Made by a program: the position numbers and the translations under genes. From Candidatus Woesearchaeota archaeon (lineage in GTDB: Archaea > Nanobdellota > Nanobdellia > Woesearchaeales > GW2011-AR4), in assembly GCA_002688775.1 (NCBI GenBank), contig NZDH01000004.1, positions 54,543-118,542 on the forward strand: DNA of 64,000 nucleotides. Reading direction: 5' to 3'. The notes below the pieces were generated by a model, which made no database searches, was not told where the DNA came from, and saw nothing but the letters and a program-made list of their open reading frames with translations. Below are positions 9,334 to 29,253 of the stretch, in pieces; position 1 is the first letter of the stretch, and each line of letters opens with the position of its first letter.

Positions 9334-12300
9334 ATGAAAAAACTGAATAAAATATTAAGTGTAATGATTTTGATACTTGCATTTGTGTTATTTTCATCTA
9401 TTGTTTATGCTGCTCCTCTGACTGACATGTTTGTAGGCGGATTAATACAAATTAATGATTTCTTTGAAAATGAGCAATTTGCTCCTTATGCAACTGCAAT
9501 TGACTTTTTCTTCTTTACATTACTGTTCACAGCTATATATATGATGGGTGCAAGGTATGCATTTAAGGAAATTAAAAGACCAGAGCAAGTAATTGTGATT
9601 TTACTCGGATTAATGACTGGGTTTTTGCTTGTGTTAGGTGGTTTTTCAGCAACTATCATTCTTCCTTACATACAATGGCTTTTGTATTTGCTGCTGTTCT
9701 GGATAATCTGGAAATTATTAAGCGGAATAAAAAATCCATTCTGGAGATTTATATTGGCATTGCTGTTGACTTTGCTGCTGATTGCATTGTGGCAAGGGAT
9801 GTTTAATGCATTAACTACACCAGATGTTGGAGCTCCACAAGTTGGTGGATTTTTTGGTTCTATTGGCAAATTCTTTAGAGATCTTGGAAGCAGTTTTACA
9901 GGAATTAAGATGCCAGGAGTCGGAGTGCCTGGAATTCCTGATGCTTTACAGGATCTGTTAGGAGAGCCTGGCGGGGTTGGAGCTGGGGAACCTACTGGGC
10001 CTGAAGGGTTGCCTGTGGTTACGACGCCAACTGGACCAACTGTTGTGGAAGAAGACGGGGGATTTTCTTTAGGGAATTTGTGGTGGATTCCTATTTTAGC
10101 GGCATTATTGTGGGCAGGTAATTATGCGCGCAAGAAGGGATGGCATAAATGGAGACCACGTAAAAAAGATAAACCAAAAACAATAGATGAAGTTAAAGCA
10201 GAGATAGATGATATAATTAGGAAAAAAGCAAATTCTAAAAGAAATATTATAGCAAGAAGCGATGAAAAGAATCAAATTATTCAAGCTGAAGATAGAAGAA
10301 CTGCTTTTTTAAGCAAATTAAGAGATAAAGATCCTGCAAATCTGTTTGGAGATGAAGCTAGAAGAGTAATTGATGCCGAAGGTGGAGCTTTTAAGGAACT
10401 TCTTGACAAAGAAATTCAATTAGTAGATGAACTTAAAAAATTGAAAGGTATAGAGAAAGATTTGTATTTGAAATTAGATCTATGGCAACGATCTCTTCAA
10501 GGTACAGTTGATATAAGTCCAGAAGTAAATGGCCTTAAAATTTTGATTGGTAATAAGACAACTATTCGTGACATAATAAATATGGGTATAATATGGCTAA
10601 CTGTAATCTGCTATGATATTGAAAAACGAAATGAGGTATTGACTAAAGAATTAGGAAGCTTATTGGATGATGAAGATAAAATTGAGGAGCTTGTCCAAGG
10701 CAAATTTACAACTGTTAAAAATGATGAAAGAAAATTAAGTCATTATAATTCAACTGAAATTGAATATATTGAATTATTAGAGCAAAAAATTGATGAGCAG
10801 ATAAATAAATTAAATGAATTAAAAAGAAAAATTGAAGGAACTCCACATACAGGACCTTATGGTGCACCATACGGAGCGCCTTATGGAGCGCCAGGTGGAA
10901 GGCGTGGAGGACCTTATGGAGCTCCTTACGGGGCACCTTATAGTGGTCCTGGTAGTGCAGGACCAACACCTTCTGGAGGGACTGGAAGTCCTTATGGGGC
11001 TCCCTATAGTGCTGCTGGAGCTGGAGGAACTTATGGGGCACCATACGGAGCGCCTTATGGGGCTCCTTATGGAGCGCCAGGTGGAAGGCGTGGAGGACCT
11101 GGTAGAACGACTCCACCTAGAGGTAGAAGAAGAAGTGGCAGACTTAGAATTCTAATGCTCAGCCCAACGCACCCACATGCAAGCAATGGGGTTTCTGAAG
11201 TTGTGAAAAATTTATCTTTAGCTCTAAATTCAATCGGTGTAGATGTTGAGGTACTAACTAAATGGTTTAATGAGCCATATTATTACTATGATAAAATAAA
11301 TTCTGCAGAACAAAAATTTGACACTATTGGAGAATTTTTAAATTCAAAGAACAAAGATTATTATGATTTCATACATTCTCACACATTTACATTTTCACAG
11401 ATTTCTGATACTGGCGATGGAGAAACACCTTGGAATAAATTGTTATCCCATTTTAATGTTCCATCAGCTTATACAGTTCATTCTTTAGATATTCATGAAG
11501 CTTTAACATGTAAGTGGACTTCAACAAATTACAATTATCATAAGTGGGTTGGTGAACAACTTCAACCAGTAGTTTTTGATAGTGTAAACTGCATAATTCA
11601 ATTGACAAAAACCTATAAGGAATTAACTGAAGAAATGTATCCAGGAAAAAATTACAAGTATAAATCGGTTATAATCCCTAACGGTATAATTTTAAAAAAT
11701 AGATATTCAAAACGAACACCAAATCCAAGTGAGATTAATATGCTATACTTGGGTAGATTCGAAAGAAGAAAGGGAATATACGAATTATGTGTTGCTTTTG
11801 GGACCCTTACAAAAAAATATCCAAATTTAAAGCTCCATCTTGTAGGTAGTGGTCAACCGAGAACTCCAATTCCATGGTTTAATCGGGTTGATGTAGAAAC
11901 TAAAGTCATGAAAAGAATACTTAAAAGAGGGAGTGTACCAAGTGATAGGTATGTGCTCCACGGTGTAAAGCGGGGTACAGAGAAGGAAAACATAATTAAT
12001 GATGCTGATTTTGTCATATTACCAAGCTATTTTGAAACTTTCTGCCTAGTTGGCTTAGAAGCGATCAATCAAGCTAGACCACTAATATCATCAAAGGGTC
12101 CGGCTCTTAATGAAGTATACATAGAGAGCGGATTGGCTTATCCAATAGACTTTGGGGAGTTAAGGTACAATTCCGGAGTAAATTCACAGGGCTTTGTTAG
12201 GCTTAGAGTTGAAAAAATAGTTGAAGCAGTTTCAGGTTTCATAGATAACCTTGATGAATATAGGCAAAGATCTGAACAAGTTTGGCAACTAGTCCAAAGA

Positions 12301-13317
12301 AATTCTGAATTATTTAACTGGGTGTCAATTGCAAAAAATACTAAAATAGTTTATGACAGTCTGATTCAAAACGGTTTAGTCCCAAATGTTGAAATTACAG
12401 TTCCAAATTTTATGCCACCTATTAGGCCAAGACCTCCGGGAAGTTCAGGTCCGGGATCTACTGGAAGGGGCACCACACCGCCTGGAGGTTCAGCACCCCC
12501 ACCATCTGGAGGAACTGGAAAAAGAACAACACCTGGAGGTCCTGCTAAGCTGAAGATAATTGAAGTAGATAATCAAAATCCTAAAATAATTGATAATGTT
12601 AGATTTACTTTAAAACTTGAACATCATAAAATACCTAGAGGAACAAGTTATGAAGTAGTCTTAATTGATAGGGATAGAAAAGGAGGAAAAACATTAGGGG
12701 AACGTGAGATCCAAAGATTTAGAATAAGTAAGCTTGTTAACTCTAAGTTTGCAGTTACTGTTGATGCGTCAAGAATTGGTGCTGGAGTGTATGATTATAT
12801 CTTAGTTAGAATCTTGAATATTTATCCTGATTCTGATAATAAAGATCTAGATTCTGATTCAATTACAATTAATGTGTCAGGATCAACTGAAGATGCAAGT
12901 GCTGAATGGCAAAATGCAAAATCTAAATATTCTAGTGATCGTGATTTTATTGGTTTTCTCACGACTGTAAACAGTTTTGATTGGATCAGAGGAAAGTATC
13001 CTAACATTGATTTGGTTAAAGAAGTCGTAAATTTAATAGTAGATGTCCTTATGGATACACCGAGGTATCATGACAACAAAAGAATAAAAAGGAAAGTTTT
13101 GCAAATGTTCCATCCTGATGTTGTTAAAGCATCATCTAAAGAAACTTACGAGTTATATGGGGAACTTTTCAAAAAGTTTAGTGAATATTTCACAAAAGAA
13201 AGACTTGCTAGTCCAACTAGTTATTCAAGAAAAGCTGATGCCTTAAAGCATGACGTTGATTCATTATTCATAGAATATGCAAGAAAGACTGGAAGGACTA
13301 GAAGAAGAGCAGCCTAA
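9334..13317 (+). CDS. 1327-aa mosaic membrane protein: signal peptide + multi-TM module + Gly/Pro linker + coiled coil + PYGAP tandem repeats + GT4 glycosyltransferase + Pro/Gly linker + beta-rich domain + J-domain-like HPD tail
   Basis: The protein starts with a signal-like N-terminus and 4-5 hydrophobic helices. The GT4 core runs RILMLSPTHPH ... LYLGRFERRKG ... LHLVGSG ... FVILPSYFETFCLVGLEAIN, which is the E-x7-E motif. The C-terminal KRKVLQMFHPDVV ... ELFKKFSEYF resembles a J-domain. Confidence 0.75.
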   Translation: MKKLNKILSVMILILAFVLFSSIVYAAPLTDMFVGGLIQINDFFENEQFAPYATAIDFFFFTLLFTAIYMMGARYAFKEIKRPEQVIVILLGLMTGFLLVLGGFSATIILPYIQWLLYLLLFWIIWKLLSGIKNPFWRFILALLLTLLLIALWQGMFNALTTPDVGAPQVGGFFGSIGKFFRDLGSSFTGIKMPGVGVPGIPDALQDLLGEPGGVGAGEPTGPEGLPVVTTPTGPTVVEEDGGFSLGNLWWIPILAALLWAGNYARKKGWHKWRPRKKDKPKTIDEVKAEIDDIIRKKANSKRNIIARSDEKNQIIQAEDRRTAFLSKLRDKDPANLFGDEARRVIDAEGGAFKELLDKEIQLVDELKKLKGIEKDLYLKLDLWQRSLQGTVDISPEVNGLKILIGNKTTIRDIINMGIIWLTVICYDIEKRNEVLTKELGSLLDDEDKIEELVQGKFTTVKNDERKLSHYNSTEIEYIELLEQKIDEQINKLNELKRKIEGTPHTGPYGAPYGAPYGAPGGRRGGPYGAPYGAPYSGPGSAGPTPSGGTGSPYGAPYSAAGAGGTYGAPYGAPYGAPYGAPGGRRGGPGRTTPPRGRRRSGRLRILMLSPTHPHASNGVSEVVKNLSLALNSIGVDVEVLTKWFNEPYYYYDKINSAEQKFDTIGEFLNSKNKDYYDFIHSHTFTFSQISDTGDGETPWNKLLSHFNVPSAYTVHSLDIHEALTCKWTSTNYNYHKWVGEQLQPVVFDSVNCIIQLTKTYKELTEEMYPGKNYKYKSVIIPNGIILKNRYSKRTPNPSEINMLYLGRFERRKGIYELCVAFGTLTKKYPNLKLHLVGSGQPRTPIPWFNRVDVETKVMKRILKRGSVPSDRYVLHGVKRGTEKENIINDADFVILPSYFETFCLVGLEAINQARPLISSKGPALNEVYIESGLAYPIDFGELRYNSGVNSQGFVRLRVEKIVEAVSGFIDNLDEYRQRSEQVWQLVQRNSELFNWVSIAKNTKIVYDSLIQNGLVPNVEITVPNFMPPIRPRPPGSSGPGSTGRGTTPPGGSAPPPSGGTGKRTTPGGPAKLKIIEVDNQNPKIIDNVRFTLKLEHHKIPRGTSYEVVLIDRDRKGGKTLGEREIQRFRISKLVNSKFAVTVDASRIGAGVYDYILVRILNIYPDSDNKDLDSDSITINVSGSTEDASAEWQNAKSKYSSDRDFIGFLTTVNSFDWIRGKYPNIDLVKEVVNLIVDVLMDTPRYHDNKRIKRKVLQMFHPDVVKASSKETYELYGELFKKFSEYFTKERLASPTSYSRKADALKHDVDSLFIEYARKTGRTRRRAA
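10851..11100 (+). repeat. in-frame tandem repeat encoding (P)YGAP units; two near-identical ~60-70-nt blocks at ~10854-10914 and ~11029-11100
   Basis: The nucleotide repeat ccttatgg(g/a)gc(a/g)cc(a/t)ta(c/t)gg... recurs directly. The protein repeats are PYGAPYGAPYGAPGGRRGGP, written twice. Both antisense track ORFs (10715..11116 and 10832..11155) are artefacts of this repeat. Confidence 0.85.
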
Positions 13318-13326
13318 TTTTTCTTA

Positions 13327-14052
13327 TCATCCCTTACTATGCAAGACATATTCCCTTGTGTGAGTAAAATCCAAAGAGAGTCTTGGATCTAAAATTGTTC
13401 TTGTTAATTGGTGTTCAGTTAATACCTGATCTGCTATTGGAAGCTTTCTTATTTTGCCAACCATAGTCGGATCATATCGATAACAATCTATAGCTACTTC
13501 TCTGGTCATAGGCATACCTATAAGGTGTGGTGGAGGTCTTACAAAAAATTCATATTCTATTGTCCCATATCTTTCAGCTGTTTCTTGAAAAGAAACATCA
13601 TCACCACGTTTGTCATCACTTGCGCCCATTAGATTGAGATGTACTAAATTACCCCCCCTATCTTCTATTGCTAACAATCCCCCTCTTGAGTTCTCATATC
13701 TTTCAGGAACATCAGCAACAGTCCAGGCTTCCAAACCAGGTTTAATAATTTGATCTAACATGCATGGATGGGAATGTGAAGCAAAAAGTACAAACCTATC
13801 ATCAGTTGCTAATTGTCGCCTATATGGTAAATTTGCTTGTAAAACTGTAGTCATAATTGATTCCAATCCAGGAATTGCATCCAAAGAGACACTTGTTTCT
13901 GTACCTCCATGAGGATCTGTACATTGTGTAACATATATTTCTGTATCAGAAACTCTTTCTCCAAGTAATAAAATTATATATTCTCTGTCAGTAAGAACCA
14001 TATTTGTCAATGTATCTTTTATCCACTGTGTTATGTATACTGTTTCTACCAT
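13327..14052 (-). CDS. hypothetical protein, compositional outlier, possible JAB/MPN-like HSHP motif
   Basis: The protein is K-poor and T/R/D-rich, unlike its neighbours. LFASHSHP resembles the JAMM core, but the downstream S-x2-D is not conserved. It is convergent with the giant gene. Confidence 0.35.
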   Translation of the reverse strand: MVETVYITQWIKDTLTNMVLTDREYIILLLGERVSDTEIYVTQCTDPHGGTETSVSLDAIPGLESIMTTVLQANLPYRRQLATDDRFVLFASHSHPCMLDQIIKPGLEAWTVADVPERYENSRGGLLAIEDRGGNLVHLNLMGASDDKRGDDVSFQETAERYGTIEYEFFVRPPPHLIGMPMTREVAIDCYRYDPTMVGKIRKLPIADQVLTEHQLTRTILDPRLSLDFTHTREYVLHSKG

Positions 14053-14137: not shown

Positions 14138-14596
14138 ATGACAGTAGAACAACAATTACCACCCCCGCCAAAGAAGCATGAAGGATTCATGAAGTTCGGT
14201 CATTCACATCAGCAGCAGCAAGGGCCTGACATGAGCGGAATAAATTCTGAGATGAATACTTTAGGAAGAAGGTTAAGATTGTTGGAAGAGGGTTTCAGCA
14301 ATCTGAGAAGGTTTTTTCAGGTTACTGAAGAGAATATCATAGCAAAGAACAAGCATTACTCAGCTGAGATCAAAACAGTAACATCGGATATTACTGAATT
14401 AAGAAAAGAAATCCAGGAATTAAAAGATAAGATGCTCCTTATCATCAAAGAACTGCAGACAGTTGCGAGAAAAGATGAGGTCAAGGTTCTTGAGAGATAC
14501 ATAAACCTGTGGAATCCTGTCAGATTTGTAACCCAGAATGAGATTGACGGGATAATCAACGAAGTTCTTGAGAAAAAAAGCAATAGAAAGGTTTAA
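14138..14596 (+). CDS. coiled-coil protein, unknown function
   Basis: Heptad-like LRKEIQELKDKMLLIIKELQ follows a Q-rich N-terminus. Confidence 0.4.
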   Translation: MTVEQQLPPPPKKHEGFMKFGHSHQQQQGPDMSGINSEMNTLGRRLRLLEEGFSNLRRFFQVTEENIIAKNKHYSAEIKTVTSDITELRKEIQELKDKMLLIIKELQTVARKDEVKVLERYINLWNPVRFVTQNEIDGIINEVLEKKSNRKV

Positions 14597-14638: not shown

Positions 14639-15322
14639 ATGGCTTTCTTTAAGTTTGGAAAGAAGAAAGAGGAACCTTTAGATATTCCGATGCAATCTCC
14701 TATGCCGGAGATGCAGCCAAGTAATTCTCCAGTTGAGCAAGTTCAAATGATGAAGCAGCAAGGCTACACCAACAATCAGATTACCCAATCATTGCAAGGC
14801 CAGGGTTACAACAGTTCTCAGATATCCGACGCTATAAGTCAATCAAGCTTAAGCGGCAATTCACAAGGCGGCAAAGAAATGGGAATGCCGGATTACGGGC
14901 AGAGTTACGAGCAGCAACCTTATCCACAACCCCAAGTGCAGGATTTTCAGCCTCCAAGAGAAATTAGTGCACCTGCAACCGTAGATGAAGAAAGAATACA
15001 AGAAGTTACAGAAGCCATTATTGATGAAAAATGGGATGAATTTGCCAATGACATAAGGAAGGTAATAGACTGGAAAGAAAAAAGCGAGGACAGGATAGCA
15101 AAAATAGAGCAGCATTTAATTGATTTAAGCTCGAGGATTGATTCTCTGAGTAAGGGCATTATGAGCAAGATTTCAGCTTATGATCAGAACATTGTGGATG
15201 TGGGGACTGAAATAAAAGCGATGGAAAAAGTTTTCCAGAAAGTGCTTCCAAACTTAACAGAGAACGTGAATAAGCTTGACAGGATTACTAAAGGCTACAA
15301 AGAGACACAAAGAAAAGCTTAA
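14639..15322 (+). CDS. Q/S-rich N-terminus + C-terminal coiled-coil protein, unknown function
   Basis: The N-terminal half is low-complexity and the C-terminal ~110 aa are predicted coiled coil. An SD, gagaggtgaatgaATG, sits upstream. Confidence 0.4.
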   Translation: MAFFKFGKKKEEPLDIPMQSPMPEMQPSNSPVEQVQMMKQQGYTNNQITQSLQGQGYNSSQISDAISQSSLSGNSQGGKEMGMPDYGQSYEQQPYPQPQVQDFQPPREISAPATVDEERIQEVTEAIIDEKWDEFANDIRKVIDWKEKSEDRIAKIEQHLIDLSSRIDSLSKGIMSKISAYDQNIVDVGTEIKAMEKVFQKVLPNLTENVNKLDRITKGYKETQRKA

Positions 15323-15591
15323 TTTCATCTGATTAAAGGTAATTTAGTTCTAGTTAATTTTATTTTTTAAAAAGTATTTTTATTGATAAAAAGAGACCAG
15401 TACAATACAGAAGAAATAAGTGCACAAATAATTCATTAAGTGTTTGTGAACAAATCATTAATGTATCTGTGGCTAATCTCCAGTAACTAAAACTCATTAA
15501 AGAATTAAAAATAATTAAATAAAAAAATAAATCAAATGAAACGAAAAAATCAATATAGAGCGAACGGATTGAAAATAATCCAGAAATATTT

Positions 15592-16089
15592 CTATGAACC
15601 TCTAGAGGCAATCAAACCAATTGTAAAAATAGCTATTGCAAAAATCAAAACCGTGCCAAGAAATTTTGGATGCAGAATGAGATTTATTGATTTTGACAAG
15701 TCTTGTGGATTTTCTTGTTCTCCGATTTGATCTTTTACTTTTACTCCAGCACCGATTATAATTACAACTAAAACAATTACAAAAAATATGACTTTTACCG
15801 AATGGAAAGAATCTAAGTCGCCACCCAACATTTTCAATGCGACATTCAATAAAACTACAAACAAGAAAACAACTGCAATGAAGGGTGCTGTGCTTGCAAC
15901 TACGCTTGTTGCAATAGGCGATATCAATACAAAAATACCCATCAATAACCCTACAATGAGGTAAATGAACTTATTATCGCCAAGAGCTTTTGTCCATAAG
16001 ACAACAGCATATACTACTATCCAAACAAAAAGAAAAACAAATATGCTTGAGAAATACTGCAGACCTGATACATCTAAGAACGTTGCCAT
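15592..16089 (-). CDS. multi-pass membrane protein, paralog C of a three-gene tandem family
   Basis: IFVFLFVWIVVYAVVLWTKALG aligns with the other two paralogs. Confidence 0.6.
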   Translation of the reverse strand: MATFLDVSGLQYFSSIFVFLFVWIVVYAVVLWTKALGDNKFIYLIVGLLMGIFVLISPIATSVVASTAPFIAVVFLFVVLLNVALKMLGGDLDSFHSVKVIFFVIVLVVIIIGAGVKVKDQIGEQENPQDLSKSINLILHPKFLGTVLIFAIAIFTIGLIASRGS

Positions 16090-16115
16090 ATTAGTAAATC
16101 AATATTTATTGGGGC

Positions 16116-16736
16116 TTAATGTCCTCCTTTGCCGCCGCCAAAAAGCTTGCTGAAGTCTGCACCTAATCGGCCCATTGTCGATCTATCTTCTTTTTCTTTT
16201 GAATCGCTTGTGATCCATGCTATTATTATGCCGAATACCAAGAGCATTATAACAACAGCTATACTTTCACTTCCAAAGAAACGCGTCAATGTATTGCCGA
16301 AATAGCCAGACCACCATCCAGCAGCTCCGCCGAATATAAGTATAATTACAATAAAGGAAAAAAATGCAACCCATCCCGGCATAGATAACCCTAAAAATAC
16401 CTTATCCTGGGCAAACACACCTATTAAGATTAGTAGAAAAATTATTGCAACAAGGACTACTGAGATTGATGGCAGGGCGTTGCTTATAATCAACACAGGA
16501 TCAGCATAAGCAGGAAATCTGCCGGTTATATGGGGGATGACAACAAGCAAACCAACCACAATCGAAACGACAATGTTAAGGTTTTTCTTCGCTGCCCCTA
16601 GAATTTCTGATTTTTGAAGGATTGCGTAAATAATAACAAAGATAAGTAAAAAGACAAGTAATACCTCTACCCTCCATCTGTCCAAAAGTAATATGAAATA
16701 ATCAAGCTGATAAGCTGGAGCAGCCATTTTTTGCAC
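16116..16736 (-). CDS. multi-pass membrane protein, paralog B
   Basis: VLLVFLLIFVIIYAILQKSEILG...KKNLNIVVSIVVGLLVV aligns with paralog A. Confidence 0.6.
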   Translation of the reverse strand: MQKMAAPAYQLDYFILLLDRWRVEVLLVFLLIFVIIYAILQKSEILGAAKKNLNIVVSIVVGLLVVIPHITGRFPAYADPVLIISNALPSISVVLVAIIFLLILIGVFAQDKVFLGLSMPGWVAFFSFIVIILIFGGAAGWWSGYFGNTLTRFFGSESIAVVIMLLVFGIIIAWITSDSKEKEDRSTMGRLGADFSKLFGGGKGGH

Positions 16737-16781
16737 CTCTTTATATTAATTATTTTTATATTAGTATATAAACTTTATGAA

Positions 16782-17366
16782 TTATTTATGTTGTGATACT
16801 GCCTTTGATGGTTCTTTTGTAGCATAGACTATGAAAACTACCATCAATCCAAGTAAAATAATAGATCCAGCCAGTACATCACCGCCTCCTGAACCTGAAA
16901 ATCCACCTAAACGCTCCAGCCAGGTCTGACCATCGCTGGTTTTTATTGAATCAAGAAAAATACCAAGGATTGCTATGAATACTATGATCATAAATGTAAT
17001 TTTCCAGCCTCCTTGCAAATGAGTAGGTTCTCCTTCTTTGTGGAAAGAGCCTATTAATAGAAGGAATAGAACGCTGAAGAAAAGGACAATAACAGCTTTG
17101 GCTACAGTTTCATTTATAATTTCCACTAATTCCCTGGTTGCAATCACCAAGAACGCTATTACAAAAGAAGCAATTGCATTAAGGTTCTTCTTCGGAAAAT
17201 TTTTTCCTCCGATTTCTTCAGTGCCCAGAACTTTTGTCTTTTCAAGTATAGCAAAAACAATAGTAAAAACAAGCAGGAAAGGCAATACAACATCAAATAA
17301 TCCAATCTGGTCAAAGAAAGTGATTACTTCTCTAAAAGGAGAATCTGCTGTAACGTGGCTAGTCAT
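16782..17366 (-). CDS. multi-pass membrane protein, paralog A
   Basis: FLLVFTIVFAILEKTKVLG...KKNLNAIASFVIAFLVI aligns with paralog B. Confidence 0.6.
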   Translation of the reverse strand: MTSHVTADSPFREVITFFDQIGLFDVVLPFLLVFTIVFAILEKTKVLGTEEIGGKNFPKKNLNAIASFVIAFLVIATRELVEIINETVAKAVIVLFFSVLFLLLIGSFHKEGEPTHLQGGWKITFMIIVFIAILGIFLDSIKTSDGQTWLERLGGFSGSGGGDVLAGSIILLGLMVVFIVYATKEPSKAVSQHK

Positions 17367-17452
17367 ACTATTTTTACTCTGATATTGGTATTTAAATGTT
17401 TTGGTTTTTTCTATTAAAAACCTTTATAAATATAACAAGAACTTCAGATATT

Positions 17453-18065: not shown

Positions 18066-20297
18066 ATGAAAAGAACGCATACTTGCGGAGATTTGACTGA
18101 TAAAGATGTCAATAAAAAGGTGACTTTATCGGGCTGGTGCTCTACAAGAAGAGACCATGGCGGTGTAATTTTCATTGACTTAAGGGACAGATATGGATTG
18201 ACACAAGTAGTTTTTGATCCGAGCCATAACCTGGAAAGCCATAAGACTGCAGAAACTTTGAGGAGAGAATATGTAATCACAGTTGAGGGTCATGTCAGGA
18301 AAAGACCTGAAGGCATGGAAAATAAAAATTTACCAACAGGCAAGATAGAAGTTCTTATGGACGAAATCCTTAGCGTCAACAAAGCACAAACTCCCCCTTT
18401 GGAGATTGATGATAACATTGAAGCTTCTGAAGATATAAGGCTGAAATACAGATATCTTGACCTGAGAAGGAATAAGATGCAAAAGCAGCTGATGTTCAGG
18501 CACCAGCTTTCAACTGCAATAAGGGAATACCTAAATCAGCAAGGCTTTATTGAGATTGAAACACCGATGATGATCAAGACTACTCCAGAAGGAGCCAGAG
18601 ACTATTTAGTGCCAAGCAGAATCCATCCTGGAAAATTTTATTCATTGCCGCAATCTCCGCAGATATACAAGCAGATCTTGATGATTGCTGGCTTTGATAA
18701 ATACTACCAGATAGCAAGATGCTTGAGAGACGAAGATTTGAGAACTGACAGGCAGCCAGAGCATACTCAAGTTGATCTAGAGATGTCTTTTGCTGATGTT
18801 GAAGATATATTTCACATTACAGAAGGCCTTATCAAAAATGCTTTCAGAAAACTTCTAAATAGAGATGTGAAAACTCCTTTCAAGAGATTTTCTTATGCCG
18901 AATCAATGGAAAAATACTGCACAGACAAGCCGGACATAAGATTTGGGATGGAATGCTGCACTGTTACAGACATAGTCAAAGATTCTGAATTCAAAGTGTT
19001 TCTTGAAGTCATAAAGAAAGGAATTGTAAAAGTGTTGAATGCAGAGAGTTGCGGAGAAAAATTAAGCAGGAAGCAAATCGACGAGTTAATTGAATTTGCC
19101 CAGCAGAATGGCGCAAAAGGACTTGCGTGGATGAAAGTAACAAAGAATGGATTGGAAAGCAATATTGCGAAGTTTTTTCCTGAAAAAGTGCAGAAAGAAT
19201 TAATCAAAAGAGCTAAAGCAAAGCATGGAGATTTACTGCTGTTTGCAGCTGACAATCCAAAAATAGTAAATGACGTGCTTTCAAAAATCAGGTTAAGATT
19301 AGGAAATTCCTTCGGATTGATAAAGAAAGATAATTTTGATTTTTGCTTTATAACAGACTATCCTATGTTTGAATGGAACGAAGACGAGCAAAAATGGGAT
19401 TTTAGCCATAATCCTTTCACAATGCCAAGGGAAGAATACTGGAAATATCTGGAAACAGATCCAGGCAAGGTAATCTCTTATCAATATGATTTTGTCATGA
19501 ACGGATCTGAACTTTTCTCAGGCTCTGTGCGAAACAATATTCCTGAGATGCAGATGAAAGCCTTCAAAGTTACCGGAATGCCTGAGAATGAGATAAAAGA
19601 AAAGTTTGGGTTTTTGCTTGAAGCGTATAAGTATGGAGCGCCAAGGCACGCTGGATTTGGTATGGGTTTTGACAGATTGGCATCGCTGATGCAGGGGATC
19701 CATGACATAAGGGAAGTTATCGCTTTTCCAAAGAACAAGGCAGCTGAAAATCCGATGGATGATTCGCCAAGCGAAGCAAGCGAAAGACAACTTCAGGAAC
19801 TCCATATCAAACTGGATTTTGTCAAAGATTCAGGAAATGTTGTGTTGGGTAAAATTAAAGATGTTTTGGATAAAGAAAAGATCGAGTATGAAGTTTTAGA
19901 GCATAAAGCTGTTTTCACAAGCAAGGAAGCTGCTCAAATTAGAGGAACAGAATTAAAGCAAGGTTGTAAAGCTTTGGTTTGCAAAACAGAAGAAGGTTTT
20001 ATTCAGGCTGTTGTTAGCGGTGAAAAAGAGCTTGACTTGAAAAAACTGCAGAAAATTACATTATTTAAAAATTTAGAGCTTGCTAATGCCAAAGATGTGA
20101 AAAAGGCAACTGGCTGCAATATAGGAAGTGTTCCACCATTTGGAAATCTACTGGGATTGAAGGTTTATTTCGATAAATCTGTTGCACAAAATGAAATTGT
20201 TGCCTTCAATGCAGGAGCACACACAAAAAGCATTAAAATGAAAGGCAAGGATTTGGTTAAAGTTGTTAATCCTATTGTTGGGGAGTTTTCTAAGTAG
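18066..20297 (+). CDS. aspS: bacterial-type aspartyl-tRNA synthetase (with GAD insertion domain) fused to a C-terminal YbaK/ProX-like aminoacyl-tRNA deacylase domain
   Basis: Class II aaRS motifs and an anticodon-binding N-terminus are present, the GAD domain spans ~aa 290-420, and the canonical AspRS end ERQLQELHIKL is intact. A further ~150 aa carry GCKALVCK and GCNIGSVPPFG, which are YbaK-like K-x-L-x-x-K and G-x-x-x-G-x-x-P-F-G. Confidence 0.8.
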   Translation: MKRTHTCGDLTDKDVNKKVTLSGWCSTRRDHGGVIFIDLRDRYGLTQVVFDPSHNLESHKTAETLRREYVITVEGHVRKRPEGMENKNLPTGKIEVLMDEILSVNKAQTPPLEIDDNIEASEDIRLKYRYLDLRRNKMQKQLMFRHQLSTAIREYLNQQGFIEIETPMMIKTTPEGARDYLVPSRIHPGKFYSLPQSPQIYKQILMIAGFDKYYQIARCLRDEDLRTDRQPEHTQVDLEMSFADVEDIFHITEGLIKNAFRKLLNRDVKTPFKRFSYAESMEKYCTDKPDIRFGMECCTVTDIVKDSEFKVFLEVIKKGIVKVLNAESCGEKLSRKQIDELIEFAQQNGAKGLAWMKVTKNGLESNIAKFFPEKVQKELIKRAKAKHGDLLLFAADNPKIVNDVLSKIRLRLGNSFGLIKKDNFDFCFITDYPMFEWNEDEQKWDFSHNPFTMPREEYWKYLETDPGKVISYQYDFVMNGSELFSGSVRNNIPEMQMKAFKVTGMPENEIKEKFGFLLEAYKYGAPRHAGFGMGFDRLASLMQGIHDIREVIAFPKNKAAENPMDDSPSEASERQLQELHIKLDFVKDSGNVVLGKIKDVLDKEKIEYEVLEHKAVFTSKEAAQIRGTELKQGCKALVCKTEEGFIQAVVSGEKELDLKKLQKITLFKNLELANAKDVKKATGCNIGSVPPFGNLLGLKVYFDKSVAQNEIVAFNAGAHTKSIKMKGKDLVKVVNPIVGEFSK

Positions 20298-26123: not shown

Positions 26124-27347
26124 TTATAGGTCCAGTTCTAAAATTCTGCTTGCTTCTTCCCTAGCTCTTTTCTCAAAATCAGGGACTGTTTCTCCTTCCT
26201 GACGCTCTGTGCTTAATGTCTTCATGAGATTTCTTACTAATTCTTCCTCTTTTTCTAAAGTTAAATTCTCTAACTTTATTTGGCCAAGATGCTCCTTTAT
26301 GAGAAAAGATTCAATATCCTCCACATTTCTAGCGTCTGTTTTTATTTCCTCAAATTCTTTTGTTTTTACTGCATGAGAACTTTTCATAACAAAATAAGCG
26401 GATTTTTCATAAATTCTTGTGAATATTTCCCTAAAATCGATGTCGCTTGGCTTTCCTGATTCCAGAACGCCCTGCAATCTTATTAAAACAACAGTGTTGT
26501 TTAATTCTTTGTCTTTAATCTGGTCAAGAATTTCATCTTTTATCTTTTCAGGAGTTTTATGGTTGCAGTCAACAGGAATTTTGAGAGTATTGTAAATTTG
26601 AATTGGTTCCCATCGAATTTTATCGTCTTCAACAATATAGAATCCGCCTCTCTCGAGTTTTTCAAGTTCAGCAAAGCTGTTTGGGAATAATGGCCCAGGA
26701 TAAACAATCCTTCCATAATCTTCAATCTGCTTGTCTTCAACAATGTGGACATGACCACCTGCATAATAATCAAATCCTTTTGGCAATAAAGACAATGGCT
26801 GGGAAATTATATTTTCCATCTCTTTTGGCTTGAGCTCATCAATTCCTGAATGAAATAGGAATATCTTATAGCCTTTTTCATTCTCAAGATTATCCAAGAT
26901 TAATTTTTCATAATATTTTTTTTCCAGAGCGCCCCTTTTACCAAGAATTCCGGTGATTTTAGTTCCGGTTTTCTTATCCAAAGTGAAATTTAATTTTAAT
27001 TTTCCATTTTCAGCAGATCCCTTGAAGACGTTGATGAACAGACCAGCTTCTTCCAGAACATCAAGGATTGTTTTTCCGCTTGGGCTGTAGTCATGACTTC
27101 CAGGAACAATATAGACTGGAATATTCAGGTCTTTTAATTGCTTGAATTTAGTGACAACAGTTTTTAGATTATCTAATCTTGGGAAAGATGTATTAAATAA
27201 ATCACCAGCAATAAGCATGAAGTCTACTTTTTCTTTGATGCATTTATCAACTGCCTTACTAAAAGCTTTTGTGCTTGTATCCTTTAGTTTAGGGTCCCTC
27301 CATGATCCGATATGGCAATCTGCCAGATGAGCGAATTTCATGGACAA
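26124..27347 (-). CDS. mre11: Mre11/SbcD-type DNA repair nuclease
   Basis: The phosphoesterase motifs HLADCHIG, IAGDLFN and GSHD are present, and the size is 407 aa. Confidence 0.8.
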   Translation of the reverse strand: MSMKFAHLADCHIGSWRDPKLKDTSTKAFSKAVDKCIKEKVDFMLIAGDLFNTSFPRLDNLKTVVTKFKQLKDLNIPVYIVPGSHDYSPSGKTILDVLEEAGLFINVFKGSAENGKLKLNFTLDKKTGTKITGILGKRGALEKKYYEKLILDNLENEKGYKIFLFHSGIDELKPKEMENIISQPLSLLPKGFDYYAGGHVHIVEDKQIEDYGRIVYPGPLFPNSFAELEKLERGGFYIVEDDKIRWEPIQIYNTLKIPVDCNHKTPEKIKDEILDQIKDKELNNTVVLIRLQGVLESGKPSDIDFREIFTRIYEKSAYFVMKSSHAVKTKEFEEIKTDARNVEDIESFLIKEHLGQIKLENLTLEKEEELVRNLMKTLSTERQEGETVPDFEKRAREEASRILELDL

Positions 27348-27446: not shown

Positions 27447-27692
27447 ATGGCACAAGTAGTATGTAGATGTGGGGTAAAAAGAAAATCTGGATATCTATAT
27501 TTTGTGAATAAGAAAGGCAATTGCTCCAGAGTTCAGATGGCAAGAGCTGGAAAAAGAACCAGCAAGAAGCAGGAAACTCTGCACAGTTGCGGAATTAAGA
27601 GAAAAAAAGGCTACCTTTACTTTGTCGATAAGAAAGGCAATGTTGCTATGGCAAAGATGAACAGAGGCGGCAGAAAAAGAAAAAGAAGATAA
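27447..27692 (+). CDS. small basic protein built of two tandem ~35-aa repeats
   Basis: The repeats are CRCGVKRKSGYLYFVNKKGNCSRVQMARAGKR and HSCGIKRKKGYLYFVDKKGNVAMAKMNRGGRK. An SD, aaaaggtga, lies upstream. Confidence 0.5.
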   Translation: MAQVVCRCGVKRKSGYLYFVNKKGNCSRVQMARAGKRTSKKQETLHSCGIKRKKGYLYFVDKKGNVAMAKMNRGGRKRKRR

Positions 27693-27711: not shown

Positions 27712-29253
27712 TTATTTTAACTCGCTAAATTCATACTTAACTTCTTCCTTATTTTTAATGGTATCCTTAACTACATCTTCGAAATAAGGAATACTTATAG
27801 GTGTTACAAATCTTGCAAAGTTGCTGGTTATCAAGGCTTCTCCAATGTCCAATGAGGCGATTGTCCTGTCGTCATCACTTAAGTCTTGTGATGCGCTTTC
27901 AATTATTGCCTGTCTTTCCGGTTTCATCTCGATACCCAAAATAATTTTGGTGTTCATGTTTGCAAGAATCTCCCTGGGTATCAACGAAGGCAATTGAGTT
28001 ATGGCTGTCAAGCCTACTTTGAATTTACGGCCTTCCCTTGCTACTGTTGAAAATATATTTGGACCTGCCTCTAATACTTCTTTTCCCAAAACTCGCGGAG
28101 CTTCTTCCAAAACAATAGAAATTACTGGTTTTGAATTAAGCGAGCCCTGCATCTTATAGCTTTTGTACTTGTTAAAAACTTCATTTGCTATCAAGCTGCC
28201 TATCAACAATTCAACCGCTCCTGAAAAGTTTGATGTGTCAATTACAGCTATCCTTCCATCCTCAAGCTGCTTGCATATATCCCTTATTGTTGTGAATCCT
28301 GAATTCAACTGAAAAACTCCTTTGCAGAATAATTGATTATTGCTGAATTCCAAGTCAAGCAAGTAAAGCAGTCTTCTTTTGACAACAGCCAGCGTATCAT
28401 CCTTGAATAATTTTCCAAGTTTAAGGTTTTTTTCTAAAATTATAGATTCTATCCACTTGTCTCCAAATTCTTTATAGTAAAGATTCAGTGATTGTTTTTG
28501 GGCATCGCTAAAATCAACAACCCCTTCAAAATGATGGGGCCTTATGACATCCAGATTTATTTTTAATGTGTTTGTTCCAATCGGGGCATTCTTAGACGTG
28601 TAATAAATGATATTTTCCTTATTTGGATGGTCTTTCAAGCCAGTCTTGTTCCTGCCGTAATATTCATCATGGGGGTCCAAAACCAAGATACCGCAATAAC
28701 CTCTTCCAACAGCGTTCCATAAAAGATTCGAGACTAAAACGCTTTTACCCCTTCCTGTGGTTCCTGCTATCAATATGTGGTGAGGGAATACTTTCTCACC
28801 GTCCAGATAGATCTGGACATCAAGCAATTTTGATCCTGATCTTAAGTTGCCGACAAATAACGGATTTTTGGGTTTTGTAAGAAAGGACAGATCAGATTCT
28901 TTTATCTCTCTTATTTCAGAAAAAAAACCAGGCATTGATTTGCTGACAAATGCATTTTTATCTTTTATAGTCACTAAACTTTTCATAATTGCTAGCATGT
29001 AATTCCGTAAATTAGGGTCAAAAAGCTCAAATTCTGTGTTTTCTTCAAGCTTCATGCCAGAAATCAGTTCCAGGTTTTGCTGTGATATCTGGCTTCCATA
29101 AACTAAATCATAGACCTGCAGCAATATTTTACTGTCATTGGAATCAGAAATTAATAATTCTCCTATCTCAATTGATTGGCCTGATTTTTGTCTTGCAATT
29201 ATTTTTCCAAACTCACCAGAAATAACCTGGCCCTTAGTCAAAATACCACCCAA
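27712..29253 (-). CDS. herA: HerA-type (FtsK/HerA superfamily) ATPase
   Basis: An N-terminal HAS-barrel-like [15 protein letters not shown] is followed by Walker [11 protein letters not shown] and Walker B VLDPHDEY. Confidence 0.7.

Follow-up and report, generated by a model that had tools for sequence, protein, structure and literature searches.

A large, unclassified family of membrane proteins encoded by a conserved three-paralog operon in Woesearchaeota

The genomes of Woesearchaeota and related DPANN archaea are tiny and encode very few recognisable transporters or surface machines, and the organisms depend on other cells. Here we examine three adjacent genes for small multi-pass membrane proteins, designated M3, M2, and M1, in a stretch of 64,000 nucleotides from a marine Woesearchaeota (DPANN) genome (GenBank assembly GCA_002688775.1, contig NZDH01000004.1, positions 54,543 to 118,542; the whole stretch is called the window below). 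The locus raises the question whether these proteins are truly related to one another and to the N-terminus of a giant protein encoded nearby, whether they arose by a local expansion or are an old and widespread set, and what such a set might do in the cell envelope. The descriptive core of the answer is an ancient operon of three paralogs in fixed order, which belong to an unclassified family, are strongly conserved, and lie next to coiled-coil genes and, in most relatives, an ATPase gene; of this we are highly confident. The function that we propose for the operon is a more tentative matter.

Three paralogs in one operon

The three open reading frames (ORFs) that an earlier note, made from the sequence alone, had placed on the minus strand are present, and the peptides quoted in it are found in their translations; only the start of M2 is revised, most likely to 16727. 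The operon and the intergenic regions on both sides of it are as follows:

16782..17366, minus strand: M3, operon gene 1, 194 aa, the best conserved of the three
16116..16727, minus strand: M2, operon gene 2, 203 aa from the ATG at 16727
15592..16089, minus strand: M1, operon gene 3, 165 aa, the most divergent paralog
17367..17452, no strand: divergent intergenic region between M3 and the translin-family gene, read as sequence
15323..15591, no strand: convergent intergenic region between the stop codons of M1 and of the coiled-coil gene CC2, read as sequence

Judged from sequence comparison, M3 and M2 are confirmed as clear paralogs and M1 as a divergent member of the same family. M3 and M2 share 34.7% identity over 121 aa (blastp, E 1e-9 to 4e-12), and their family profiles, built from 120 orthologs each, align in hhalign over 140 columns with a probability of 99.3% and an E-value of 1.3e-20. 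The blastp alignment of M1 with M2 covers just 55 aa at 27% identity; at the level of family profiles, M1 matches M2 at E 1.2e-6 and M3 at E 2.7e-5 (hhalign). When the M1 hidden Markov model (HMM) was run against the 209 ORFs of the window, its best non-self matches were M3 (5e-5) and M2 (1e-3), and the M2 HMM recovered M1. The hhalign scores of M1 (38.8 and 30.5) were not reached by any of 40 column shuffles (14.8 ± 2.5 and 14.6 ± 2.4, maximum 21.3), and the view of the earlier note that these are three tandem, paralogous multi-pass membrane proteins is thereby borne out. In a joint MAFFT alignment of 74 sequences, the three proteins are collinear across five hydrophobic segments. All three combine what we took to define the M family, namely a significant profile or HMM match, the collinear five-helix layout, and an N-terminal module made up of an amphipathic FxDxxGL segment, a first transmembrane helix (TM1) with LPFLLVF..A.L.KTK.LG, and a basic KKNLN entry to TM2.

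Around this shared plan the paralogs differ. In M3, five hydrophobic helices follow an amphipathic helix at the N-terminus, and the sequence contains the motif LPFLLVFTIVFAILEKTKVLG...KKNLN; M2 has the same five helices plus a charged C-terminal tail (SDSKEKEDR..LGADFSKLFGGG); and M1 shares mainly the N-terminal module (FLDxxGL, TM1, xTKxLG, TM2) along with the collinear helix layout. Lysine and arginine are concentrated in the TM1-TM2 loop (EKTKVLG...KKNLN) and in the C-terminal tails, a placement that predicts a five-pass topology with the N-terminus outside and the C-terminus inside. AlphaFold2 models of M3 (pLDDT 74.6, pTM 0.51; helices at residues 10-21, 23-44, 60-76, 78-107, 120-140, 149-158, and 162-183) and M2 (pLDDT 72, pTM 0.44) show, with moderate confidence, a helical bundle that is preceded by an amphipathic helix at the N-terminus.

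The genes are closely packed, with gaps of 45-54 bp between M3 and M2 and of 26 bp between M2 and M1. The ORF tool starts M2 at a GTG at 16736, which overlaps a GGTG Shine-Dalgarno-like motif; the database protein P0121 (CMO83_01335, Candidatus Woesearchaeota) has 203 aa and is 100% identical to M2 read from the ATG at 16727, which, with the GGTG ahead of it, is most likely the true start. M1 is likewise 100% identical to a database protein (P0241, CMO83_01330, Candidatus Woesearchaeota). Upstream of M3, an A/T-rich TTTAAATA element at 17389-17396, about 23-30 nt before the M3 ATG, is a candidate archaeal TATA box, and the translin-family gene on the other side of this intergenic region probably starts where its orthologs do, with MLSKKEF. 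The convergent region at 15323..15591 contains several oligo-T or oligo-A runs, with T-rich runs beyond the M1 stop codon, which would fit an end of both units by the oligo-T termination of archaea. The short gaps, the TTTAAATA element, and the T-rich runs after M1 would together fit a single M3-M2-M1 transcription unit.

No curated family or solved fold accommodates the M family, in line with the earlier note, which could assign it to no known family. In Pfam, the best scores of M1-M3 were 10-14 bits against cut-offs of 24-31, with nothing comparable in NCBIfam and no match in a PADLOC scan, and 57 diverse representatives of the family gave only scattered sub-threshold Pfam matches (Acyl_transf_3 in 7 of 57, DUF2070 in 5 of 57). 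At a threshold of E ≤ 1e-3, applied to both Foldseek and profile-sequence searches, the family has no match in the PDB: Foldseek comparison of the M2 and M3 models with PDB and viral structures returned no fold match (best E 2-5, TM-scores of at most 0.27), and the best results of the PDB sequence profile search were NuoJ (E 0.08-0.1) and transmembrane regions of the acetylcholine receptor, both set aside as noise of hydrophobic composition. NuoJ, subunit J of complex I, is similar in length and helix count (about 175 aa, five helices), and the M profile aligns over positions 35-172; the match is neither significant nor accompanied by a Foldseek match, and neither the scanned ORFs of the window nor the gene tables of the related loci showed any other complex I gene. 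No account of the family turned up in literature searches.

Three more specific identities were also considered and rejected. Type IV pilins and archaellins have a class III signal, for which we required a short leader ending in [KRDE][GA], one hydrophobic helix at the N-terminus, and a non-membrane domain after it; in M1-M3 the residue before the conserved glycine is I, L, W, T, or S (IG|LFD, WG|LTD, TG|LEH) and not a charged one, and the proteins have five hydrophobic helices with no soluble domain. Platform proteins of the T2SSF/PilC/TadC/FlaJ type would carry the T2SSF domain (PF00482), a cytoplasmic helical bundle with three transmembrane helices that is usually present twice; it is matched neither by M1-M3 nor by the 57 representatives. 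A GxGD aspartyl protease (prepilin peptidase A24, FlaK/PibD), which has two invariant catalytic aspartates with the second in the GxGD motif, might be suggested by GGGD at residues 159-162 of M3, but its aspartate lies outside the invariant and the at least 90% conserved columns of M3-like sequences, is missing from M1, and is glutamate in the M2 of the window (glutamate or aspartate in M2 orthologs), and no match to Pfam Peptidase_A24 was found.

Range, gene order, and conservation of the family

Among 1.84 billion cluster representatives, a joint profile of the M3, M2, and M1 subfamilies matched 2,714 clusters (50% identity) at E ≤ 1e-3 and 1,294 of them at E ≤ 1e-10. The best 150 of the 2,714 representatives sort cleanly into 83 M2-like, 62 M3-like, and 5 M1-like sequences, and M3 has 2,309 database matches, the best 120 of them 70-80% identical. 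All named members are hypothetical proteins from metagenome-assembled genomes of Woesearchaeota, Nanoarchaeota, or Nanoarchaeia. A scan of genome contigs with the single M3 protein gave one locus, so the taxonomic range is taken from these source names, by which the family occurs only in Woesearchaeota and Nanoarchaeia. The description of the family as lineage-specific in the earlier note agrees with these names, provided that it is not taken to mean a small family. One M3-like protein, P0365, carries the JGI/IMG name "mannitol-specific phosphotransferase system IIBC component", for which Pfam and NCBIfam scans give no support.

An alignment of M3 alone was used to retrieve 85 related metagenomic loci, whose M3 proteins are 46-83% identical to that of the window; here and below, neighbours are counted only in loci with room on the contig for the gene in question. 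About 80 of these loci have one ortholog each of M3, M2, and M1 in the order M3-M2-M1 on one strand, so that the array which the earlier note had suggested looking for in related genomes is indeed widespread. M2 is the next gene after M3 in 55 of 58 loci and M1 the next after M2 in 47 of 49, an essentially invariant order. Neither a fourth paralog nor a conserved small gene lies between M1 and CC2 in the relatives, only variable, unrelated insertions. The fixed order implies that the triplication predates the diversification of these lineages; the tandem expansion that the earlier note had envisaged was no recent, local event.

A departure from this arrangement occurs once, in a 5.3-kb contig of the ENA, where an M3-like and an M2-like sequence are fused head to tail in a protein of 365 aa (P0363). 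If real, the fusion may be a Rosetta-stone link between the two proteins; otherwise the loss of a stop codon or a faulty assembly may explain it.

The operon is also strongly conserved in sequence. Median identities to the window proteins, taken over the same loci, are 64% for M3, 57% for M2, and 47% for M1, compared with 53% for CC2, 50% for CC1 (the second coiled-coil gene), 61% for aspartyl-tRNA synthetase (AspRS), and 72% for the translin-family protein. M3 orthologs are thus about as similar as those of AspRS, which indicates purifying selection at a housekeeping level. The three M proteins evolve at different but correlated rates, and the retention of all three genes over this divergence argues for non-redundant subunits.

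Small multi-pass membrane proteins encoded together have been described before in archaea. The euryarchaeal "dark matter" islands contain three to four small, fast-evolving membrane proteins (arCOG01996, arCOG02054, arCOG09673) whose assembly into a membrane complex was suggested (Makarova, Galperin & Koonin 2015, PMC5898192). The island families are SpoIIM (PF01944) and Yip1 (PF04893), neither of which is matched by the M proteins, and unlike them, the M proteins are paralogs of one another and evolve slowly. A triad that evolves slowly, is retained across the sampled relatives, and resembles nothing known in sequence or fold may well serve a core membrane function that defines the lineage, such as uptake, envelope biogenesis, or host contact. 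Its novelty is so far that of a "dark matter" family, large and unclassified, with nothing mechanistically surprising yet; the family definition, the three orthologous groups, and the conserved neighbours make it a concrete target for further work, including curation as a new Pfam or arCOG family.

Neighbouring genes and the possible role of the operon

Two coiled-coil genes lie beside the operon. They are real and on the opposite strand, as the earlier note had reported, and they lie downstream of the operon and convergent with it, not upstream:

14639..15322, plus strand: CC2, 227 aa, convergent with M1, its 3' end at 15322 facing the M1 3' end at 15592
14138..14596, plus strand: CC1, a coiled coil of 152 aa, upstream of CC2 on the same strand

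CC2 begins with a basic N-terminus (MAFFKFGKKK, conserved as MA[LF]FG.KKK in orthologs), followed by a small helical HTH/UBA-like domain, a Q/P-rich linker, and a C-terminal coiled coil that ends in KAMEKVFQKVLPxFTENVN, while CC1 has a conserved C-terminal motif, KYINLWNPxxFVTxNE. Both have only weak, generic coiled-coil matches in Pfam and PDB; a single weak match of CC2 to DUF7310 (E 0.005) is not shared by its orthologs, and an hhalign comparison of the two (E 0.0024, probability 12%) leaves CC1 as a possible remote paralog of CC2. In the relatives, CC2 is found within 10 kb downstream of the operon in 23 of 26 loci and CC1 in 20 of 26, with 1-1,900 bp between M1 and CC2. The MA[LF]FG.KKK start presumably resembles the short basic, membrane-binding N-termini of ESCRT-III/CHMP proteins, with the rest of CC2 lacking the ESCRT-III layout. 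An identity as ESCRT-III, PspA, or Vipp1 was rejected for both coiled-coil proteins: no Snf7 match was found, PspA_IM30 appeared weakly in 3 of 23 CC2 orthologs among some 70 generic coiled-coil families, and the basic N-terminus of CC2 is followed by the HTH/UBA-like domain and Q/P linker, not by a helical hairpin.

Beyond CC1, and divergent from it, 14 of 20 loci encode a ribbon-helix-helix (RHH)-like protein, a T2SSE ATPase, and a large membrane protein; loci with this module include L005 (14096-18963), L002, L039, L043, L048, L051, L058, L062, L065, L066, L068, L080, and L085. The first of the three genes encodes 46 aa and is read as RHH-like with no family match. The ATPase (about 767 aa) has its best PDB relatives in afGspE (2OAP, 3e-29), CpaF (3e-24), and FlaI (2e-15), and its multi-pass partner (about 728 aa) gives a sub-threshold T2SSF match in 3 of 13 orthologs. 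Across loci in which the median identity of M3 is 55%, that of the ATPase is 65% and that of the partner 60%. A crude scan for class III signals found no pilin-like ORFs beside the ATPase clusters.

This arrangement has a partial parallel in the archaeal type IV pilus (T4P) systems, in which a halobacterial ATPase clade has a cytoplasmic coiled-coil partner (arCOG07564); the clade also occurs in nanoarchaea, where its pilins were left unidentified (Makarova et al. 2016, PMC4858521). Like these T4P-like loci, most of the related M loci adjoin coiled-coil genes, a GspE/CpaF/FlaI-type ATPase, and a large membrane protein, with no pilin-like genes nearby; the differences are that no similarity in sequence to a known T4P component was found, that the ATPase module is missing from the window, and that the association is one of gene order only.

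The explanation that we propose starts from the operon itself. M3, M2, and M1 are anciently diverged paralogs, presumably co-transcribed, whose products may assemble 1:1:1 into a hetero-oligomeric integral-membrane complex of about 15 helices, with N-termini predicted to face outward and the lysine-rich TM1-TM2 loops and C-terminal tails predicted to be cytoplasmic. The cytoplasmic faces of this complex could dock CC1 and CC2, the latter perhaps also binding the membrane through its basic N-terminus, and the complex and the coiled-coil proteins might together act as the membrane base or an accessory of an envelope-associated machine, for which the adjacent GspE/CpaF/FlaI-type ATPase and large membrane protein are the candidates in most relatives. 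Taken as a whole, this explanation is tentative, plausible rather than probable. Its boldest form, that M1-M3, CC1, and CC2 are the missing lineage-specific parts of a highly conserved, pilin-less GspE/Tad-type ATPase machine at the core of Woesearchaeota cell biology, is doubtful; if true, it would mean a new archaeal secretion or uptake machine that is not a pilus, for example an envelope conduit or an attachment apparatus for exchange with a host.

Several observations weigh against the proposed complex and its machine. The T2SSE ATPase and its partner gene are absent from the 64-kb window, where their place is occupied by a 241-aa gene and the giant protein; 3 of 26 loci have no coiled-coil genes nearby, and unrelated genes are sometimes found between M1 and CC2. 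The functionally unrelated translin-family gene (29 of 43 loci) and AspRS (13 of 24) adjoin the operon almost as often as the ATPase does, and with housekeeping neighbours kept nearly as often, gene order by itself does not tell whether adjacent genes work together or were simply inherited side by side. The M proteins lack a soluble domain from which a partner might be guessed, the structural models are only moderately confident (pTM 0.44 and 0.51), and the M3-M2 fusion in P0363, if real, conflicts with an odd number of helices.

A stand-alone role in transport or in membrane biogenesis is a serious rival. As a transporter, the triad would be a housekeeping carrier or channel for solutes or ions, composed of three paralogous five-helix subunits whose present neighbours merely reflect inherited gene order. 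DPANN genomes encode few recognisable transporters; M3 is as conserved as AspRS and the translin-family protein; the operon persists with no coiled-coil or ATPase neighbours in L012, L056, and L075 and with no ATPase in the window; the total of about 15 helices equals the size of a secondary transporter; and conserved polar residues occur at the helix ends of M3-like sequences (D25, E42, K43, N61, and N63). These residues, however, lie in the predicted cytoplasmic loop and not in the middle of the membrane, the operon encodes no substrate-binding or energising partner, and similarity to any transporter family or fold is lacking, so that we regard a transporter as rather unlikely.

The triad could instead be a complex for membrane biogenesis or the handling of lipids, for example an insertase helper, a flippase, or a scramblase, in cells that have to obtain their lipids from hosts. 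The housekeeping-level conservation of an operon that is near-universal in the sampled loci would suit such a role, as would proteins that are wholly embedded in the membrane with short loops, but YidC/Oxa1, MprF-type flippases, and other Pfam or PDB families are not matched, and the genes conserved beside the operon include none for lipids or glycosylation; this alternative appears unlikely.

The three proteins might also be redundant duplicates that act independently as monomers or homo-oligomers, and their one common layout would fit this. Retention at 1:1:1 in a fixed order, down to 24-46% identity, is unexpected on such terms, and each paralog has conserved features of its own (the tail of M2, the differing sequences of loop 2), which makes independent action decidedly improbable.

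The N-terminus of the giant protein and other genes of the window

The claim of the earlier note that the same module recurs in a large mosaic protein beyond the coiled-coil genes concerns the following gene:

9334-13317, plus strand: giant protein, a mosaic of 1,327 aa, with the claimed module at aa ~50-175

Among the ORFs of the window, no M-family HMM matched the giant N-terminus at E ≤ 100, and as a single sequence the module aligned to the M profiles in hhalign with a probability below 1%. Two homologs of the module were found in locus L001, a stand-alone gene of 170 aa and a protein of 698 aa. The resulting three-sequence profile scored 19.1 against the M2 profile and 18.4 against the joint profile (hhalign, E 0.04-0.05, probability about 1%), values also reached by column shuffles (15.0 ± 3.0, 6 of 60 reaching the real score, and 13.7 ± 2.1, 2 of 60); the reversed alignments scored 15.5 and 20.1. 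An HMM of the giant module, run over the ORFs of the 85 related loci, found only the two giant-type proteins of L001 at E ≤ 1 and no M-family protein. By the comparison with shuffled sequences that the earlier note had itself proposed, the giant N-terminus is not supported as a member of the M family, for which we required a profile match above shuffled controls; on this sequence evidence, its module represents a separate family of its own, and the layout that it has in common with the M proteins (an acidic amphipathic segment and a helix, then a basic loop and another helix) is of a kind general to membrane proteins.

That local copying of a lineage-specific module produced the three tandem genes and joined a fourth copy to the N-terminal end of a giant glycosyltransferase-containing protein is accordingly highly improbable, for although the best hhalign alignment of the two is collinear (TM1, basic loop, TM2, ...LP..., ...W...), the layouts are similar, and a giant-type gene lies within a few kb of the cluster both in the window and in L001, the scores are those of the controls with no HMM match in either direction, the giant module differs from the M proteins in its cleavable-looking signal peptide and has a stand-alone homolog of its own, and the triplication is ancient.

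The giant protein consists of this signal peptide, its own membrane module of four to five helices, a further helix and basic stretch, a coiled coil, a GT4 glycosyltransferase domain (aa ~600-1010), and an unplaced C-terminal region, and its gene contains imperfect 12-nt tandem repeats (10855-11078) that encode (G)APYG. In L001, the two giant-type genes adjoin on the minus strand, the 698-aa fused version at 9449-11545 and the 170-aa stand-alone version at 11546-12058. Between the giant gene and CC1, the 241-aa ORF (13327-14052, minus strand) has no match in Pfam, NCBIfam, or PADLOC and no homolog in the 85 related loci.

On the other side of the operon, AspRS (18066-20297, plus strand, 743 aa) apparently combines a bacterial-type GAD insertion with a C-terminal YbaK/tRNA_edit domain, as judged from the Pfam domains listed for its ortholog in L002, a fusion that is called unusual for an archaeon. 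Farther along, a very basic protein of 81 aa (27447-27692, plus strand) with two similar halves (C..G.KRK.GYLYFV.KKGN...) is encoded between a putative Mre11-like ORF (26124-27347) and a putative HerA-like ORF (27712-29253), both read from the sequence.

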